NCBI GenBank assembly: GCA_043745485.1
Contig: JAYTSU010000034.1
Location: forward strand, 21,944-45,943
Origin: Candidatus Saccharimonadota bacterium
GTDB taxonomy: Bacteria > Patescibacteriota > Saccharimonadia > Saccharimonadales > JACDBH01
Length of the DNA stretch: 24,000 nt
Direction of reading: 5' to 3'
The notes below the pieces were generated by a model that worked only from the letters and a program-made list of their open reading frames with translations, was not told the origin of the DNA and searched no databases. Of the stretch, positions 1 to 17,855 are shown piece after piece (the first letter of the stretch is position 1; every line of letters starts with the position of its first letter). The position numbers were made by a program, and so were the translations under genes.

Positions 1-706
1 GCGTTGTTACCACTACACGGAGTGGGTCAATCTTCTCTTTTTCTAGATATTTTTGTAACTCTCTACCAGCATAGGTAACATTACCGCCCTTGCCCCGCAC
101 TTCTCCTTCAATTACGGGGTGCTTAACGGCAACAGCGTGCATAAAATCCTTGCCATATTCTTTAACTAAATCGAGAGCCGACTGTTCCGACTGCGCGCCG
201 TTGCGCTCTTCGTAGGCAATAATCAGTATCACCTTTTTCATATCAAACTTGCTCGCCAGACAAGATTTGACGGTTGGTTCCAAAATCTCACGGCTTTCGT
301 TATAAGTGGCAATGATAAGCGCATGGATAACTTCGCTCGGGGGCAAACAGAGCGGCTGCTCTTTGAGACGCTCCACATTATTTCTATGCCACTTTGGTAT
401 CCATTTTAGATCATGCCGCACCTCGCCCGCCTCAATGTCATCAAGCAACATCTGCCAGTCAAGTTTCTGCTGGTTAGCCATGGCATTGTAGCCCTGCAAA
501 GACCGGACATTAAGCCCCACAGACTTAACAAACCAGATCAACAGGAATGCAATGATATAAATTGCAAATAGCGTTGGATTAACCAGACTTAGAACCAGAG
601 GCAACAACAAAAAGGTCCAGCTTACGGCTCCCGGAAAAATCTCCCAAAATCTATACCGCCAACTACGGTCGCGCTCATACGGGATCTCAATATCACGTAC
701 ATTCAT
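1..706 (-). CDS. Glycosyltransferase family 2 (cellulose-synthase-like) membrane protein, N-terminal part; the gene continues beyond the window start
   Basis: The minus-strand frame is open from the ATG at 706 to the window edge, so it is absent from the ORF track. My own translation is MNVRDIEIPYERDRSWRYRFWEIFPGAVSW..(TM)..VIHALIIATYNESREILEPTV..GKGGNVTYAG. The IIxTYNE and GK(G/A)GN motifs are typical of GT2/CESA-like enzymes. The start overlaps the upstream stop by 1 nt (TAATG). Confidence 0.7.
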   Translation of the reverse strand, partial: MNVRDIEIPYERDRSWRYRFWEIFPGAVSWTFLLLPLVLSLVNPTLFAIYIIAFLLIWFVKSVGLNVRSLQGYNAMANQQKLDWQMLLDDIEAGEVRHDLKWIPKWHRNNVERLKEQPLCLPPSEVIHALIIATYNESREILEPTVKSCLASKFDMKKVILIIAYEERNGAQSEQSALDLVKEYGKDFMHAVAVKHPVIEGEVRGKGGNVTYAGRELQKYLEKEKIDPLRVVVTT

Positions 707-1062
707 TATCTTTGTCCCAACAAGGATCCGCTCACAACAATAGCAAATACCGCTAAAATTGTACTCATCACTATTGCGCCAAGAGCTAAGTGTCGTCGCT
801 CATGGTAAACCCGAGTGCTAATCAACAACGACACACCAAAACTAATTAAAAAGAACAAGACAAAGCTGCTCATATCAAATGCATTACCCGTCTTAAATTC
901 GCCTGAACTTGAAACGCCACGGAACTGGATATAATACGTATTGCCTTTGGAGCTATCGAGTTGGAACAGCACCAATAAGATACCGGTTATAACCAAAATG
1001 CTGTTAAGAGCAAGCAGTAGCAGCACCGAACGGTCATGAAAATACTTGGTTGGAGTCGTCAT
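706..1062 (-). CDS. Small polytopic membrane protein, unknown function (about 3-4 TM helices)
   Basis: 118-aa ORF with hydrophobic stretches (VLLLLALNSILVITGILLVLF, FVLFFLISFGVSLLI, LGAIVMSTILAVFAIVV). It is translationally coupled to the downstream GT2 gene. A TATAAT box lies 13 nt upstream of the ATG. Confidence 0.6.
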   Translation of the reverse strand: MTTPTKYFHDRSVLLLLALNSILVITGILLVLFQLDSSKGNTYYIQFRGVSSSGEFKTGNAFDMSSFVLFFLISFGVSLLISTRVYHERRHLALGAIVMSTILAVFAIVVSGSLLGQR

Positions 1063-1088
1063 ATAGGTTCGTTTTATTATACACCATA

Positions 1089-1173
1089 CCCCATGAAACA
1101 GGTTTCATGGGGACCCCCAGTTGAGAGTCTGTCACTATCTGTTGTTCACTTCGCGGTTACAATCTCATTCGTT
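1089..1173 (-). repeat. Copy A of an approximately 85-nt structured intergenic element (5' box AACGAATGAGATTGTAAC ... GGGGTCCCC hairpin, read on the minus strand)
   Basis: Hand alignment with copies at 1738..1821 (+) and 11109..11193 (-). The hairpin CCCCATGAAAC/GTTTCATGGGG lies at 1089..1112. Confidence 0.6.
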
Positions 1174-1195
1174 TTAGGGGGCGTATACTAAAAAT

Positions 1196-1738
1196 ATGAA
1201 GAAGTTCATAAAACCCTTGATAGTAGTTGCGGTAATATCGATATTTTTCTCGACAATCTATGCAGCTTCTCAGTTTATATTACGCTCCAGCGCCAACGAC
1301 CCGCAGATCCAGCTTGCCCAAGATGCCGCCAGCCTGCTTAATGACGGCTCTACGCTAGCTTCGGTCATTACGCCCAAAATTAATGTCGCAACTAGCCTCA
1401 CGCCTGTTGTCATTGTTTACAATCAATCCGGCCACACTGTCGGTACGGCGGCATTTGCCGGGCAATTACCTATTCGCGATATACCCCTCGGAGTGCTCAA
1501 AGCAGCCAGCTCAAGCTATAATGCAGTCACATGGGAGCCAGAGTCCAACATTCGCCTAGCCGCCGTTGCTGTCAAAGCCAACCACTTCTATGTCGTCAGC
1601 GCACGATCGTTACGTGAAGTAGAAAATCGCGAAAGTACTGTATTTAAAATAACATCCCTCGGCTGGCTCATAACCCTGCTCATCATCGCAGTCGCTTACT
1701 TTCTCCCAAAATACTTCCACCCCAAAGACCAGCCTTAA
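1196..1738 (+). CDS. Hypothetical bitopic membrane protein (N- and C-terminal TM helices flanking an approximately 130-aa extracytoplasmic domain)
   Basis: 180-aa ORF with TM segments PLIVVAVISIFFSTIYAA and LGWLITLLIIAVAYFL. I recognise no family motif. A TATACT box (1184..1189) lies 6 nt upstream of the ATG. Confidence 0.6.
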   Translation: MKKFIKPLIVVAVISIFFSTIYAASQFILRSSANDPQIQLAQDAASLLNDGSTLASVITPKINVATSLTPVVIVYNQSGHTVGTAAFAGQLPIRDIPLGVLKAASSSYNAVTWEPESNIRLAAVAVKANHFYVVSARSLREVENRESTVFKITSLGWLITLLIIAVAYFLPKYFHPKDQP

Positions 1739-1821
1739 ACGGTAGTGGCTGTAACCGCGCGTCTAACCTAACAAATTGAAAAATTTCCATCTGGGGTCCC
1801 CGCAAAGCCTGCTTTGTGGGG
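1738..1821 (+). repeat. Copy B of the approximately 85-nt structured element (AACGGTAGTGGCTGTAACCGCG ... GGGGTCCCC hairpin)
   Basis: It starts at the last base of the ORF 1196..1738 stop codon. The hairpin CCCCGCAAAGC/GCTTTGTGGGG (1798..1821) ends 3 nt from the tRNA-Thr 3' end. My hand alignment to copy A gives about 54/85 identities. Confidence 0.6.
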
Positions 1822-1824
1822 AAA

Positions 1825-1900
1825 TGGAGCCACCTCGGGGGGTCGAACCCCGGACCTCATCTTTACGAAAGATGCGCTCTACCAACTGAGCTAAGGCGGC
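1825..1900 (-). tRNA. tRNA-Thr (anticodon CGT), CCA encoded
   Basis: The reverse complement GCCGCCTTAGCTCAGTTGGTAGAGCGCATCTTTCGTAAAGATGAGGTCCGGGGTTCGACCCCCCGAGGTGGCTCCA folds as a cloverleaf. The anticodon stem is CATCT/AGATG with loop TTCGTAA; the T-loop is TTCGACC. Confidence 0.9.
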
Positions 1901-1939
1901 GTTTAATCGAACAGGGGTAATTATACCAAACAATAATGA

Positions 1940-3442: not shown

Positions 3443-3480
3443 TACAATTTAAATATCAAATCGAGACTACTATTGTTCAG

Positions 3481-3502
3481 AAATCCGACTCTATGTTCCG
3501 CC
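3481..3502 (+). repeat. Junction repeat R1 (AAATCCGACTCTATGTTCCGCC)
   Basis: Direct repeat shared with 4229..4250 and 4600..4621. It sits 39 nt after the hydrolase stop codon. Confidence 0.75.
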
Positions 3503-3671: not shown

Positions 3672-3678
3672 TTGGTAT

Positions 3679-3966
3679 ATGAATAGTCTGGATAAAACAA
3701 TCATCAATGTTAAGATTAGCAAAACGCTCAAGCAAGATGCACAAGCACTTGCTGATGAGATCGGTGTGCCTCTCAGTACTGTTGTTATTGCTAACTTAAA
3801 GGAATTTGTACGGAGCCGTTCACTAACAGTTTCGGCATTACCGCGGTTAAAACCTGAAATAGAAAAGGAATTAGGTGATGCTATTGATGATTATCGTAAG
3901 GGTAAGAATGTCTCGCCTGTTATGCAAAATCCGCAGGCTGTTGCTGACCACCTCAAATCACTATGA
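3679..3966 (+). CDS. RelB/DinJ-family (ribbon-helix-helix) type II antitoxin
   Basis: The N-terminus MNSLDKTIINVKISKTLKQDAQALADEIGVPLSTVVIANLKEFV resembles the DinJ/RelB RHH. I chose the internal ATG at 3679 because the tracked TTG start at 3643 coincides with the -35 box. The stop overlaps the toxin start (ATGA). Confidence 0.75.
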   Translation: MNSLDKTIINVKISKTLKQDAQALADEIGVPLSTVVIANLKEFVRSRSLTVSALPRLKPEIEKELGDAIDDYRKGKNVSPVMQNPQAVADHLKSL

Positions 3967-4223: not shown

Positions 4224-4228
4224 TTCGG

Positions 4229-4250
4229 AAATCCGACTCTATATCTCGCC
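4229..4250 (+). repeat. Junction repeat R2 (AAATCCGACTCTATATCTCGCC)
   Basis: It begins 6 nt after the toxin stop codon. GCATAAGC follows at 4252..4259. Confidence 0.75.
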
Positions 4251-4537: not shown

Positions 4538-4599
4538 TTAACTCCAGCTTATTGGCAGCATAAAGTTTGTGTAAGAAGTTTATATAAACACCTATGGTG

Positions 4600-4621
4600 C
4601 AATCCGACTGTATACTCCGTC
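4600..4621 (+). repeat. Junction repeat R3 (CAATCCGACTGTATACTCCGTC)
   Basis: Located 63 nt after the DUF1059 stop. GAAGCAA follows, as after R1, and GCATAAGC (4637..4644) follows, as after R2. Confidence 0.7.
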
Positions 4622-7034: not shown

Positions 7035-7118
7035 GAGTATTGGTTTCCTTTTAATTACTTCTTGCTAGTTTAGCAGAAAACACCTTAGCTTTACATCTCT
7101 TTGGTATCAGCTACACTA

Positions 7119-8045
7119 ATGTTTATGCTTGTAAGTAAACTAAAAACTGATTTTTTGGAATATCTGGAGATTGAGCAAAACCGCTCGCAAAAAACAATCC
7201 AAAACTATGATCATTATTTGACGCGTTTGCTTGACTTTGCTGGCGATGACTTGAAGCTCAGTGATATTGACCCTGAGCTCCTACGCAAGTGGCGTCTGTG
7301 GCTCAACCGCCTTGGAACCAACGTCAGCGACGAGCTACAAAAGAACACGCAGAACTACCACCTGATTGCCCTCAGAAGCTTTTTAAAATACTGCACTAAA
7401 CGTGATATTGCCTGCATGAGTGCGGATAAAGTGGAACTAGCCAAGACCGTGCGTAAGCAAGTGACTTTCTTAAATCCAGAAGAGCTGGCTCGGCTGTTTG
7501 AATCGCCGGATACTAACACCCTTGCAGGGCTGCGCGACCGGGCAATTTTGGAGCTGCTATTCAGCTCTGGCCTGCGTGTATCAGAGCTGGTGGGACTAGA
7601 CAAAGACCACATCAATCTGAAGCGAAAAGAATTTACAGTGCGCGGCAAAGGTCAAAAAGATCGGCCTATATTTATAAGTGATGCCGCAGCCGACTGCATT
7701 GAGAAGTATGTTGCAGGTCGTAAAGATAACACTAAGCCTTTATTTGTACGCTATAGTGGTAATAAACAGATACGGCTCGATGGCAACTTCTACCGCTTAA
7801 CCGCACGGAGTGTTCAGCGCTTAGTAGCGCGACATGCCCTGCTAGCAGGCATTACCAAGCACGTTAGCCCGCACACGCTGCGACACAGTTTTGCGACCGA
7901 TCTCCTCATGAATGGGGCCGACATCCGTAGCGTGCAAGCCATGCTTGGCCACAGCAACATAGCAACTACCCAGATATATACCCATGTGACTGATCCCCAC
8001 CTTAAAGAAATCCATACAAAGTTTCACGACAAGCAACCAGACTAG
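7119..8045 (+). CDS. xerC: Tyrosine site-specific recombinase, XerC/XerD family
   Basis: The C-terminus HTLRHSFATDLLMNGADIRSVQAMLGHSNIATTQIYTHV carries the R..H-x-x-R..Y catalytic signature. The N-terminus is a SAM-like core-binding domain. I cannot separate XerC from XerD. A -35 TTTACA and -10 TACACT (7112..7117) lie 7 nt upstream of the second ATG (7125), so 7125 may be the real leaderless start. The tracked TTG at 7101 is unlikely. Confidence 0.85.
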   Translation: MFMLVSKLKTDFLEYLEIEQNRSQKTIQNYDHYLTRLLDFAGDDLKLSDIDPELLRKWRLWLNRLGTNVSDELQKNTQNYHLIALRSFLKYCTKRDIACMSADKVELAKTVRKQVTFLNPEELARLFESPDTNTLAGLRDRAILELLFSSGLRVSELVGLDKDHINLKRKEFTVRGKGQKDRPIFISDAAADCIEKYVAGRKDNTKPLFVRYSGNKQIRLDGNFYRLTARSVQRLVARHALLAGITKHVSPHTLRHSFATDLLMNGADIRSVQAMLGHSNIATTQIYTHVTDPHLKEIHTKFHDKQPD

Positions 8046-10290: not shown

Positions 10291-11083
10291 AGTCGCTCCC
10301 CACGCCCGAATCAATAAGCACATTTGTGTCCACACTATTGTTGCCTGCGCCAATAGTTATCTCCGACTTCTTACCATTGCCTCCAAGCATACACAGTCGT
10401 ACACCACCTTGAATCTGCACCAACGAATTAGGTAAAAAGGGATTAGGTAAAACTAATGAATCAACGGTTGCATTCGTGGCAGCATTTCCTGGAATACCAT
10501 ACAGTAGCACTCCGTGGCTACCATTTGCCGTATTTGTTGATGTCGGACCACCTCCAAGTTCAACGATAAACGCCAGCGCATTATACGATGTAACGCCATC
10601 AGCAATGGAAATTGCACTTTGCAGTCGAAGATCATATAAGTAGTTGTATTTTTCGGTCACGTTGACAGTACCATTTGCAACTACTACTGGTGATGCTTCA
10701 GTTAAATCCTTTACATCTGTGTTTAATAAGCCAAAGTATTGTCGGCCTACCAACGTAATAATATCGGCATTTGTAGCCTTAAGATTAACAATCTTACCTA
10801 AAAATATGCAGCCAGCATTAGCTCCGGGTGTTTTTGCTGACCCATCAACTTTTACCGAAGTCCCAAATGGTAAGCAGTTAAATCCATTCGGATAGAACCC
10901 ATTAGCAACATCGCTCGTAACGTTTTGAAATCTGGCTTCTAACGCGCGTATCGACTGATTGTTTTCATTTTGAGCTTGTTTACCGCTTAAAAGCAGTGCG
11001 GACGAAAGAAAAAGAGCACCAGTAACAGCCAGTACAATCATTACCTCAATAATAGTATAGCCAGCAGATGAGTGGCGTTTCAT
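10283..11083 (-). CDS. Prepilin-type minor pilin (266 aa)
   Basis: MKRHSSAG|YTIIEVMIVLAVTGALFL shows G|YTIIE with Glu at +5. It is the first gene after a TGcTATACT promoter and has leaderless-type spacing. Confidence 0.8.
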   Translation of the reverse strand: MKRHSSAGYTIIEVMIVLAVTGALFLSSALLLSGKQAQNENNQSIRALEARFQNVTSDVANGFYPNGFNCLPFGTSVKVDGSAKTPGANAGCIFLGKIVNLKATNADIITLVGRQYFGLLNTDVKDLTEASPVVVANGTVNVTEKYNYLYDLRLQSAISIADGVTSYNALAFIVELGGGPTSTNTANGSHGVLLYGIPGNAATNATVDSLVLPNPFLPNSLVQIQGGVRLCMLGGNGKKSEITIGAGNNSVDTNVLIDSGVGSDCG

Positions 11084-11090
11084 ACCTGTT

Positions 11091-11099
11091 AGTATAGCA
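11091..11099 (-). promoter_or_regulatory. Extended -10 promoter (TGCTATACT) of the minor-pilin operon
   Basis: The minus strand reads ACGCTTATGCTATACTaacaggtATG, with the -10 box 7 nt from the ATG at 11083. The same ACGCTTATGCTATA-T string precedes pilM. Confidence 0.5.
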
Positions 11100-11108
11100 T
11101 AAGCGTAA

Positions 11109-11193
11109 CCCCCACAAGCATAGCTTGCGGGGACCCCTTTTGAGAATTTTATACGGCTGCGTGCTATACACTTCAGTTACAGTCTCTTTCGTT
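11109..11193 (-). repeat. Copy C of the approximately 85-nt structured element (AACGAAAGAGACTGTAAC ... GGGGTCCCC hairpin)
   Basis: It lies in the 162-nt gap between pilD and the minor pilins, in the same orientation as the operon. The hairpin CCCCGCAAGC/GCTTGTGGGG lies at 11109..11132. The first 18 nt match copy A at 16/18 positions. Confidence 0.6.
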
Positions 11194-11245
11194 CGACGCA
11201 TGACCGGTAATAGCCGAATCATCCTAGATCATGGCGAGTGGGCTT

Positions 11246-12118
11246 TTAGTATAAGAGGAATTTTTTGCGGTACCAGGCCGCAATACTTGCGCCGAAAAGC
11301 TTGACGATGATTGTCGCTACTATTAAGAACGGTCCAAATGGGATGTGGCTTTTGGTTGTTATTTTTTTACTCCAAAGCCCTGGTAAAATAACTACTGTTC
11401 CGATTAAAGAGGCAAAAAACAGTACCAAAAATGATTGCAGCGGCACTGCAATGATAAAGCCAGCTATTATTCCATACTTCACGTCTCCACCACCTATCCA
11501 CTTGCCCTTTGAGACCTGGAACAATGCCCAGAAAAGCCCAGCCGCGATTAACAAGCTGATAACAGTATCTTTAAACCCATGTAGCCCACTGTGAAAAACC
11601 GTGATGTTAACAACTGCAGTGATTGCACTGACAATAATGAGCGGATATGTAATGCGGTTGGGTAGCAGTAGCCACCGAAGGTCGTAAATAAGCAAAGCCA
11701 TGAATCCAACCAATAGGATGCACCACATAACAAAGTTGAAAGTGCCCATTGCATTGAAGTTATATGGCCAATATACATACGAAGCAACAAATAGTCCTGC
11801 TGTAAGCAGCTCAACTAATGGATACTGCTTGGATATGGGTTTATGACAATAGCGACACTTGCCCCCTAGCCCCAGCCAACTTAAGAGTGGTATAAGATCG
11901 CCAGCGTGCAGCGTATGATGACATTCAGGGCACATGCTACGCCCTTTTATGATGGACAAGTCTGCGCTTTTGAATGTAGCTCTCTTCTCAGTTGTTTTCT
12001 TATTGTGTTTTGGATGGTCTTGTTCATGTATACGCCAAACTAAAGCATTTACGAAGCTACCAAAACATACACCAAGAAGTATTAGTATTGTAATGACCAT
12101 TACCATGTATGGTATCAC
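11246..12118 (-). CDS. pilD: Prepilin peptidase / N-methyltransferase (A24 family)
   Basis: It has the Cys cluster CPECHHTL..GGKCRYCHKPIS and YPLVELLT. The two catalytic Asp regions are LIYDLRWLLLP and GGGDVKY, and the C-terminal motif is IPFGPFL. The start is GTG at 12118; the ATG at 12106 is an alternative. Confidence 0.9.
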   Translation of the reverse strand: MIPYMVMVITILILLGVCFGSFVNALVWRIHEQDHPKHNKKTTEKRATFKSADLSIIKGRSMCPECHHTLHAGDLIPLLSWLGLGGKCRYCHKPISKQYPLVELLTAGLFVASYVYWPYNFNAMGTFNFVMWCILLVGFMALLIYDLRWLLLPNRITYPLIIVSAITAVVNITVFHSGLHGFKDTVISLLIAAGLFWALFQVSKGKWIGGGDVKYGIIAGFIIAVPLQSFLVLFFASLIGTVVILPGLWSKKITTKSHIPFGPFLIVATIIVKLFGASIAAWYRKKFLLY

Positions 12119-17199: not shown

Positions 17200-17855
17200 T
17201 TGACCACCTTGGACCCTATCTTAAGGTCTTTTTCTGGTTGATAAAATGTATTAGCAGAAATTACAGCTTGTATATTAGTGTTCGTACCAGTGAGTAATAT
17301 ACTTTGGACTTGGAACGGTCGGATTGATTTTTCAAGAGTTGCACTTAATTTTTGGATGCCGGCATAATCCGACTTTATATCTACAGAGAATGGCATTGCT
17401 ACTGCTTTCGTAGCAGAACCTGTGGCTTGAGCGGATGCATCATCGGTACCAGTAATTGCATTGATCTTGTAGCCAGTCAGTAACTTCTCGAGGCTAGTCG
17501 CAAGTGCTGGGAAGTCATATTTACTTGGCAGAGCATCAAGCACCAGTTTCCCGTTGTCGCCATCGCGCTCACCAGAGCCTATACCACTTCCACCTATCAA
17601 ATTAGGGTTTTGCGCAGCAAATGATTTGTAGGAAGCTACCAAAGTAGCAACAGCGGTTTTATTAGCTTTTAGCTGTTTTACTGCCTTTTCTTTTTCGCTT
17701 GCAACTTTATTAAGATAATTAGCTTGAGACAAAAATGTTTTGCTGGCAACCAGTGAAAACATTGTAATAATAGACGCACCTATGACCAGTCCGAGCATCA
17801 TTGCCTGGGTTTTATCAACTTGTATCCGCTTTGTCTGATGGAGATTTTTTGCCAT
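17196..17855 (-). CDS. pilO: PilO-like pilus alignment protein
   Basis: 219 aa with a short cytoplasmic N-terminus and a TM helix (MMLGLVIGASIITMFSLV). A coiled-coil segment (ANYLNKVASEKEKAVKQLKANK) and a C-terminal domain follow. It sits directly after pilN and overlaps it by 1 nt. Confidence 0.65.
   Translation of the reverse strand: MAKNLHQTKRIQVDKTQAMMLGLVIGASIITMFSLVASKTFLSQANYLNKVASEKEKAVKQLKANKTAVATLVASYKSFAAQNPNLIGGSGIGSGERDGDNGKLVLDALPSKYDFPALATSLEKLLTGYKINAITGTDDASAQATGSATKAVAMPFSVDIKSDYAGIQKLSATLEKSIRPFQVQSILLTGTNTNIQAVISANTFYQPEKDLKIGSKVVK

Follow-up and report, generated by a model that had tools for sequence, protein, structure and literature searches.

Considering that a hairpin-bearing element lies in the 162 nt gap which separates pilD from the first minor-pilin gene of a type IV pilus (T4P) locus, the question arises whether this element acts as a dedicated regulator of pilin expression or represents a more general feature of the genome in which it is found. 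In the current work, the term window refers to the whole stretch of DNA that was analyzed (24,000 nucleotides). It carries on its minus strand a Saccharibacteria (TM7) T4P locus with the gene order pilM, pilB, pilT, pilC, pilin, pilD and then four pilin-like genes, a gene set which matches that of T4P locus one of cultivated Saccharibacteria (PMC12206443). The identical sequence is also present on one Logan contig (SRR23617274_341579), and since the PilD protein of MAG RYN_417 is only 65% identical to that encoded by the window, the latter represents another species. The two genes enclosing the element, named copy C3, are the following:

11246-12118, minus strand: pilD (prepilin peptidase; Pfam A24_N_bact and Peptidase_A24), upstream of C3
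10283-11083, minus strand: first minor-pilin gene (Pfam N_methyl motif), downstream of C3

C3 is one of three copies of a single element of approximately 95 nt present in the window. The three copies, the parts of C3 and the adjacent promoter are located as follows:

1086-1181, minus strand: copy C1, matched by covariance model R1 with 79.8 bits, its hairpin being at 1089-1112
1730-1824, plus strand: copy C2, matched by R1 with 87 bits, its hairpin being at 1798-1821
11106-11201, minus strand: copy C3, a whole repeat unit of the alpha type, matched by R1 with 63.7 bits and aligned with the other copies
11183-11201, minus strand: alpha-type 5' module of C3 (..CGAACGAAAGAGA), which aligns with TTTGCCGAAACGAAAGAGA of other alpha copies
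11176-11182, minus strand: invariant CTGTAAC box of C3 (GTTACAG on the plus strand), identical in five of five orthologs of the pilD intergenic region
11138-11175, minus strand: spacer of C3, 38 nt, of conserved length (37-40 nt) and poorly conserved sequence
11129-11137, minus strand: GGGGTCCCC box of C3 (G4-Y-C4), with 95% mean pairwise identity across copies
11110-11132, minus strand: hairpin 2 of C3 (CCCC-GCAAGC-UAU-GCUUGU-GGGG, 10 bp), defined by folding and by covariation over 42 copies
11091-11099, minus strand: extended -10 promoter TGCTATACT of the minor-pilin genes, outside the repeat, with GCTTATGCTATACTAACAGGTATG kept in related T4P loci

The preliminary description of this DNA had placed a third copy in the pilD/minor-pilin gap at 11109-11193, which is confirmed here with slightly wider, model-defined limits. 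It had also stated that the three hairpins differ in sequence while retaining their pairing, and that the fifth pair is G-T in two of the three copies and would be A·C on the other strand, both of which hold: the stems (ATGAAAC/GTTTCAT, GCAAAG(C)/(G)CTTTGT and GCAAGC/GCTTGT) are all paired, and pair 5 of C3 is a G·U on the minus strand, where hairpin 2 folds with -16.9 kcal/mol as compared to -13.4 kcal/mol on the plus strand. The C4 of the GGGGTCCCC box forms the 5' foot of this hairpin, and C3 is devoid of the upstream terminator hairpin that is found in other copies. Within the window, exact GGGGTCCCC occurs only inside the three copies, and with at most one mismatch it is found at 7 sites, as compared to 1.9 +/- 1.4 in shuffled sequences, none of 100 of which reaches 7. 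Folds of the whole units give modest z-scores (-1.3 to -2.4).

C1 is placed between divergent ORFs at 706-1062 (minus) and 1196-1738 (plus), while C2 overlaps the stop codon of the latter ORF, its hairpin ending 3 nt from the CCA end of a convergent tRNA-Thr at 1825-1900 (minus). In locus L099, which is syntenic (1379-2690) with window positions 700-1900, C1 is absent, and a tRNA-Gly(ccc) together with a second repeat copy is located between the ORF180 homolog and a tRNA-Thr(cgt). Recombination between two direct repeat copies could be the source of the window arrangement, and the boundaries of a C1 insertion relative to L099 were not definable, the intergenic regions being too diverged. The ORF between C1 and C2 was considered as a RAYT or cargo gene and rejected, as its product of 180 aa is a predicted membrane protein without Pfam match and its L099 homolog occurs without a C1 copy. 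The window also contains a second short repeat, (TTC)AGAAATCCGACTCTATAT, with three intergenic occurrences around 3.4-4.6 kb (3476-3502, 4224-4250 and 4595-4621) and one at 17.4 kb (17366-17382).

It is well supported that C3 is one copy of an old, lineage-specific and dispersed family of intergenic repeats belonging to a soil subclade of Saccharibacteria, with about 40 further copies beyond the window, located in genomes of related Saccharibacteria and in contigs of soil metagenomes. When one genome per species was scanned with a two-box pattern, 9 copies were retrieved in MAG RYN_417 (JAQGGW01) and 1 in GFS_5930, in addition to about 30 matches in unrelated taxa that are apparently due to chance. 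A covariance model built from 15 copies, and applied to a metagenome scan as well as to loci fetched via PilD homologs, produced 42 matches in Saccharibacteria loci and none in other taxa; 41 of these are full-length, including 27 from outside the model-building set with scores of 36-88 bits. The viral contigs contain no copy. An Rfam scan of the whole window with E values up to 10 returned nothing at any of the copies, and three tRNAs plus chance-level matches elsewhere, while full-text searches of the literature gave no description of such repeats, of terminators or of transcript maps for Saccharibacteria; the family of ≈95 bases is undescribed so far. At least 9 exact-pattern copies in RYN_417, with 3 more in one locus, correspond to tens and not hundreds per genome. 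No two copies within one genome share a recent spacer (maximum identity 71%), and paralogs inside one genome are as diverged as orthologs.

In the description that follows, A sense denotes the strand reading AACG...CTGTAAC...hairpin and B sense the opposite strand. In A sense, the unit consists of an optional terminator, an alpha or a beta module, the CTGTAAC box, a spacer of 37-40 nt (mean pairwise identity 39% over all copies), the GGGG(T/C)CCCC box and a hairpin of 10-11 bp, of which the C4 of the latter box is the foot and which is closed by G4. About half of the copies open with a canonical bidirectional terminator (AAAAAGA-stem-loop-stem-TCTTTTT) of the same style as those after the tRNA operons of these genomes, and directly followed by the alpha (GCCGAAACGAAAGAGA) or beta (CACGAATGGAATGAA) module. 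Hairpin 2 is in no copy followed by a T-run, whichever strand is considered, in agreement with the preliminary description as regards the lack of a U-tract. Inverted pairs are in four of four cases composed of one alpha and one beta unit with their hairpins pointing outward (L050, L120 and twice in L125), placed 20-180 nt apart and flanking one or two terminator hairpins; no target-site duplication or flanking direct repeat was found at these four pairs. As compared to 42 full units, 3 units consist of the hairpin only. In L125 (8400-8435), a canonical terminator hairpin contains one of these, a hairpin-2 unit (CCCCAAGAAAAGATTTCTTGGGGACCCC), within its loop, which suggests that the hairpin of ≈30 nt can insert alone. 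In L019, an imperfect duplication of about 42 nt of the 3' end of the upstream gene (3675-3716 and 3867-3908; ..ATCGCCTCCCT..AACATTGGTGGATAAA) flanks a terminator plus repeat unit. Metagenome contigs L044 (3' end) and L092 (5' end) stop inside hairpin 2, as expected from assembly breaks at a dispersed repeat.

The conservation of the hairpin resides in its pairing. Over the 42 copies, which display 25 distinct hairpin sequences, 98.6% of stem pair cells are standard pairs, a proportion that falls to 61% or less when the partner columns are slid. Double changes are seen at five of six variable stem pairs and amount to 67 cells, as compared to 15.7 in shuffles. Pair 5, read in A sense, is of two kinds only, G·U (21 copies) and A-U (20 copies), so that structure is favoured on the strand running from CTGTAAC to the hairpin; the A-sense hairpin is the more stable one in 22 copies, and the B-sense hairpin in 2. 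A G at pair 5 is found in 8 of 10 tRNA-adjacent copies and in 13 of 31 elsewhere. These data support selection of the hairpin as a single-stranded structure. The preliminary description had argued for selection on an RNA structure transcribed from the AACG-to-hairpin strand, of which the covariation and the strand asymmetry are upheld; pair 5 would also be compatible with single-stranded DNA, hairpins of which tolerate a G·T wobble as well. RNAalifold, applied to the 42 copies, returned this one hairpin only, CTGTAAC and the modules being left without a partner to pair with. The T of TGGGG is never C, though C would strengthen the stem; the search patterns required this T and the CTGTAAC box, and both are also present in copies to which only synteny or the model had led (L043, L048, L050 twice, L120c and L045).

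In order to follow C3 through its relatives, the same intergenic region was compared across loci fetched by PilD homologs. A full unit is located between pilD and the promoter in L048, L043 and L120 (PilD 82%, 75% and 59% identical, respectively), and an inverted alpha/beta pair occupies this place in RYN_417 (L050, 65%). L045 (75%) contains the hairpin only, 12 nt from the -10 box, L052 (67%) an unrelated U-tract-less hairpin of 11 bp at the same spot, L049 (64%) unrelated long-palindrome insertions, and L053 (64%) no hairpin, pilD overlapping the promoter. The copy is orthologous in at least five species. Among five orthologous full units (PilD 59-82% identical), CTGTAAC is 100% conserved, also where the ortholog was found by synteny and not by search pattern, and the closing G4 tracts are kept, while spacer identity amounts to only 37% and compensatory substitutions have altered the stem (GCAAGC, ACGAAAC, ATGAAAC, GCAAAG). 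That the boxes remain invariant at orthologous sites while their surroundings decay argues for selection at each locus rather than recent copying, and the alignments would thereby point to constraint at the level of the host at the pilD site. The hairpin would be the part that matters there, judging from L045, which has kept the hairpin only, and from L052, where an unrelated hairpin is found.

GCTTATGC-TATACT follows the end of the C3 hairpin at 5 nt, and the minor-pilin ATG (11081-11083) is situated 7 nt after TATACT, a geometry which implies a leaderless or near-leaderless minor-pilin mRNA. The GCTTATGCTATACTAACAGGTATG sequence (window 11081-11104, minus strand) is identical or has few differences in six related T4P loci, and is kept in this way across species (L043, L045, L048, L050, L052, L053, L120) of which the PilD is only 59-82% identical. 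According to the preliminary description, the hairpin abuts this promoter where a -35 box would sit; the position is correct, and the hairpin was rejected as a -35 element, considering that it lies anywhere from 0 to about 40 nt away from the -10 box, depending on the locus. In L053, the GCTTATGCTATACTAACAGGTATG promoter is inside the 3' end of pilD. In L049 (10898-11140), the long inverted-repeat insertions (ccgttttctccgccacctggcggat...) are unrelated to the repeat family, the second of which interrupts the promoter, leaving TATAC in the -10 box both split and duplicated; the pilD/minor-pilin intergenic region is an insertion hot spot. Gene callers have run the first minor-pilin ORF upstream through the hairpin in L043 (10929) and L045 (10179), and the element is therefore hidden by annotated intergenic regions of 70 and 11 nt. 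The pilX-like gene is followed in all related T4P loci by a gene for a Xer-like tyrosine recombinase (window 7101-8045, plus strand; homologs with Phage_int_SAM and Phage_integrase domains), and since this gene is kept also where the repeat family is absent, a link to the repeat is unlikely.

The surroundings of the other copies show that C3 is not particular to pilus genes. Every copy is intergenic, and the neighbours are housekeeping genes, such as rnpA-yidC (in two genomes), ftsX and a CHAP hydrolase gene, and oxidoreductase genes, the rnpA-yidC and ftsX-CHAP copies being inside conserved clusters; no transposase was seen among 10 neighbouring genes. In ten of 41 copies, all in B sense relative to the tRNA, a tRNA CCA end precedes the unit by 0-3 nt, and several copies fill the entire gap of ≈95 nt between tandem tRNAs that are jointly served by a single TGTTATAAT-type promoter ahead of them and a single canonical terminator behind them. 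Seven copies are located -1 to 23 nt after convergent stop codons, an eighth being at 176 nt, and 19 lie 11-190 nt upstream of a co-oriented gene with its own extended -10 box. The tRNA promoters have the extended -10 consensus TGTTATAAT, TGTTAAAAT or TGTTAGAAT, 11-19 nt before the mature 5' end, with no recognisable -35 box (L024, L099, L111, L104, L100, L008, L074, L002 and window 1901-1935). In the preliminary description, copies equally frequent in either orientation relative to genes had been named as refuting its reading, and this is what is observed: the copies are co-oriented with their downstream neighbour in 19 cases and convergent in 19, the corresponding numbers for the upstream neighbour being 20 and 18, and the ten copies that abut tRNA 3' ends are in the opposite sense. 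Orientation does differ by class, solo copies between co-directional protein genes being in A sense in 10:2 and those after tRNAs in B sense in 10:0. Instead of being a regulator dedicated to the pilus, the hairpin is generic gene punctuation at the borders of genes and tRNAs, and the proposal of a cis-regulatory RNA that sets pilin stoichiometry is not supported in view of the copies at rnpA-yidC, ftsX-CHAP and tRNAs and of the single conserved hairpin.

As to what the hairpin does at such boundaries, we tentatively favour, with somewhat less than even confidence, an old REP/BIME-like repeat whose hairpin would mark transcript ends without a U-tract, here upstream of a leaderless promoter. 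In the mechanism proposed, pilD transcripts would run into the unit, there being no terminator between, and the RNA would fold into the hairpin, which on the pilD sense strand is fully paired by virtue of its G·U pair. Even though no U-tract follows, the 3' end of pilD would then be set by the hairpin, through protection against 3' exonucleases or else through factor-assisted or inefficient termination, and the separate leaderless minor-pilin promoter, 5 nt downstream, would be shielded from pilD read-through. That the hairpin acts in RNA, forms 3' ends and insulates the promoter is what we infer. Because no terminator lies between pilD and C3, and because the A sense of C3 is the sense of pilD, a U-tract-less 3'-end or boundary hairpin, as had been suggested in the preliminary description, is the best reading at pilD; it is weakened elsewhere by the fact that about half of the copies lie behind a canonical terminator, from which it follows that read-through transcription of the hairpin is not general and that the hairpin would rarely be transcribed in its best-pairing sense. 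Considering that a U-tract is lacking and yet canonical terminators are in use in these genomes, 3'-end protection or factor-assisted stopping is to be expected in preference to intrinsic termination of the classical type; the use of hairpin-plus-U-tract terminators likewise implies that the RNA polymerase probably needs a U-tract and that the hairpin may not terminate. Between tandem tRNA pairs (L008, L024, L100, L124, L099, L104), the unit lies in its weaker sense inside an apparently single promoter-to-terminator operon, which argues against efficient termination. Against the boundary-hairpin model also stands L053, without any hairpin between pilD and the promoter, and the model accounts for neither the invariant CTGTAAC nor the fixed spacing. 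A domesticated two-box module, in which a dedicated factor would read CTGTAAC together with the G4-Y-C4 hairpin at their fixed spacing so as to make U-tract-less transcript ends, in an orientation set by gene class (in sense behind protein genes, hairpin-first where a tRNA CCA end directly precedes), is a doubtful extension.

Among the alternatives, a functionless relic of a MITE- or REP-like mobile element, with alpha and beta units derived from either end of an ancestral transposon, the hairpin as single-stranded DNA substrate of a putative HUH/RAYT-like transposase and CTGTAAC as the recognition or cleavage site of the latter, is unlikely while deserving serious attention. It would suit the dispersal of the family, the consistently heterotypic, outward-facing pairs, the hairpin-only units with one nested in a terminator loop, the contigs that break at the repeat and the wobble tolerance of single-stranded DNA hairpins, as well as the variable presence at a given site among clades (none in L053, C1 missing from L099) and the other palindromic inserts taken up by the pilD intergenic region in L049. 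Recent copies are, however, lacking, spacers being on average as diverged as stated above, and boxes which remain invariant at orthologous sites while the spacer decays require selection at each locus; nor are there target-site duplications at the four pairs, a transposase adjoining any copy, or copies in viral contigs, and streamlined genomes of about 1 Mb are expected to delete dead inserts of 95 nt. An origin from a mobile element is compatible with a boundary function today. The two invariant boxes at a fixed 37-40 bp with a free spacer sequence, the GGGGTCCCC box being itself a 9-bp palindrome, and the T of TGGGG that never becomes C despite the gain in stem stability, as if the sequence were read out, would be explained by a bipartite double-stranded DNA site for a nucleoid-associated protein or regulator, with boxes about 38 bp apart that organise or insulate promoters; the copies do lie in promoter-proximal intergenic DNA in either orientation. 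We consider such a site improbable, as a duplex needs no stem covariation, yet five pairs covary, and as the distance from hairpin to downstream -10 box is variable; to our knowledge, there is no candidate protein.

The promoters of the tRNA genes bring in a further reading, somewhat more improbable still, of the unit as a portable promoter-plus-terminator cassette in the hairpin-first sense, in which the upstream tRNA or gene would be terminated by the hairpin, with GGTTACAGT serving as an extended -10 promoter for whatever comes next. Genuine tRNA promoters are the extended -10 sequences named above, 11-19 nt before the tRNA 5' end, GTTACAGT matches 6 of 8 positions at 17-21 nt before the second tRNA (L008, L024, L124, L099), and post-tRNA copies are always hairpin-first. 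The essential -7 T is nevertheless present in only 27 of 41 copies despite the invariance of CTGTAAC, the cassette would fire antisense into the upstream gene or into a terminator at pilD and most protein-gene sites, and the next tRNA of L104 has its own TGTTATAAT after the unit. Very improbable is a stand-alone small RNA gene or structured cis-regulatory RNA setting pilin expression: the sense-strand hairpin covaries, and the alpha and beta modules beside the terminator, read hairpin-first, could give rise to RNAs of ≈45 nt, but only one hairpin is conserved, Rfam gives no match, the copies are not linked to pilus genes, C3 has no terminator hairpin, and the pilD orthologs share no conserved internal promoter. 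Such an internal sense-strand promoter (cTGTAAc-N15-17-TAGAAT) was sought and rejected, its TAG being semi-conserved and its final T present in about one quarter of copies. An ECF-type promoter (TGTAAC as -35, CGT as -10) was discarded on account of a spacing of 11-13 nt instead of 16-17, and a small ORF ending at the TAA of CTGTAAC for want of a start codon and of frame conservation. Sigma-54 promoters, cre/LacI-type operators, IHF sites, dif and attC gave no fit when their consensus sequences were compared by eye with the boxes.

The genomes of Saccharibacteria, like those of other Patescibacteria, are streamlined to about 1 Mb, and full-text searches of the literature gave no account of their non-coding repertoire or transcript boundaries. 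Natural transformation has been reported for saccharibacteria (PMC10633639) and was put to use in PMC12206443. A conserved repeat family marking the boundaries of genes, operons and tRNAs would represent a handle on how transcripts are ended and separated in Saccharibacteria, and the two-box module, if true, would amount to lineage-specific 3'-end formation or tRNA-operon processing. The family would furthermore be an aid to annotation, as illustrated by the minor-pilin ORF overextended through the hairpin in two relatives, and a possible marker for the soil clade. As regards the pilus, what lies between pilD and the minor pilins is a generic boundary element followed by a strongly conserved leaderless promoter, and not a dedicated pilin regulator.

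REP/BIME sequences are known from enterobacteria and pseudomonads, where roles in mRNA 3'-end stabilisation and attenuation have been proposed. The present family resembles them in consisting of short, GC-footed, imperfect palindromes in extragenic DNA, within operons and at 3' ends, in the asymmetric tag on one side of the stem, and in the frequent inverted pairing of two subtypes around a short linker, which applies to four of four pairs as in a BIME. The hairpin (23-26 nt) is of REP palindrome size, but is nearly always accompanied by a further architecture of about 70 nt, so that the unit, being bipartite (CTGTAAC, 38-nt spacer, hairpin), extends over ≈95 nt, in contrast to the 20-40 nt of a REP. 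The REP tag is given as a conserved GTAG or CGTC tetranucleotide at one end (PMC3733652). The units described here have no such tag and are flanked by GGGG(T/C) on one side and by variable sequence on the other; they number about a dozen known copies per genome of ≈1 Mb instead of hundreds, are tightly joined to tRNA CCA ends and canonical terminators, and no RAYT (TnpA-REP), which in REP systems is flanked by REPs, was seen among the copy neighbours examined.

MITEs that have regulatory side effects, such as the Correia elements of Neisseria and ERIC/IRU, being intergenic, 100-250 bp long and, when complete, long imperfect palindromes, are approached by the alpha/beta pairs, which span about 230-290 bp, and half-elements and a location near promoters or terminators are common to both. 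Solo units, however, have unlike ends, without terminal inverted repeat or target-site duplication, and the copies are old and diverged rather than near-identical; we know of no parent insertion sequence. With integron attC sites and IS200/IS605 ends, which are strand-specific hairpins of single-stranded DNA, the unit shares the maintenance of structure over sequence and the better folding of one strand, and with attC a comparable length, whereas CTGTAAC does not fit RYYYAAC, the hairpin end has no GTTRRRY, no integrase or TnpA is associated, and the copies are single and dispersed at housekeeping loci. A canonical intrinsic terminator would have a U-tract, and the terminator scan does not call hairpin 2. 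The mycobacterial 'I-shaped' terminator-like hairpins, the activity of which is itself disputed, are likewise GC-footed stem-loops at gene ends without a U-run, but they form no repeat family, have no conserved flanking boxes and contrast with Saccharibacteria genomes that use canonical U-tract terminators too. The family is neither REP proper nor a MITE, a canonical terminator or attC, and, by analogy of organisation, it appears to be most like REP/BIME.
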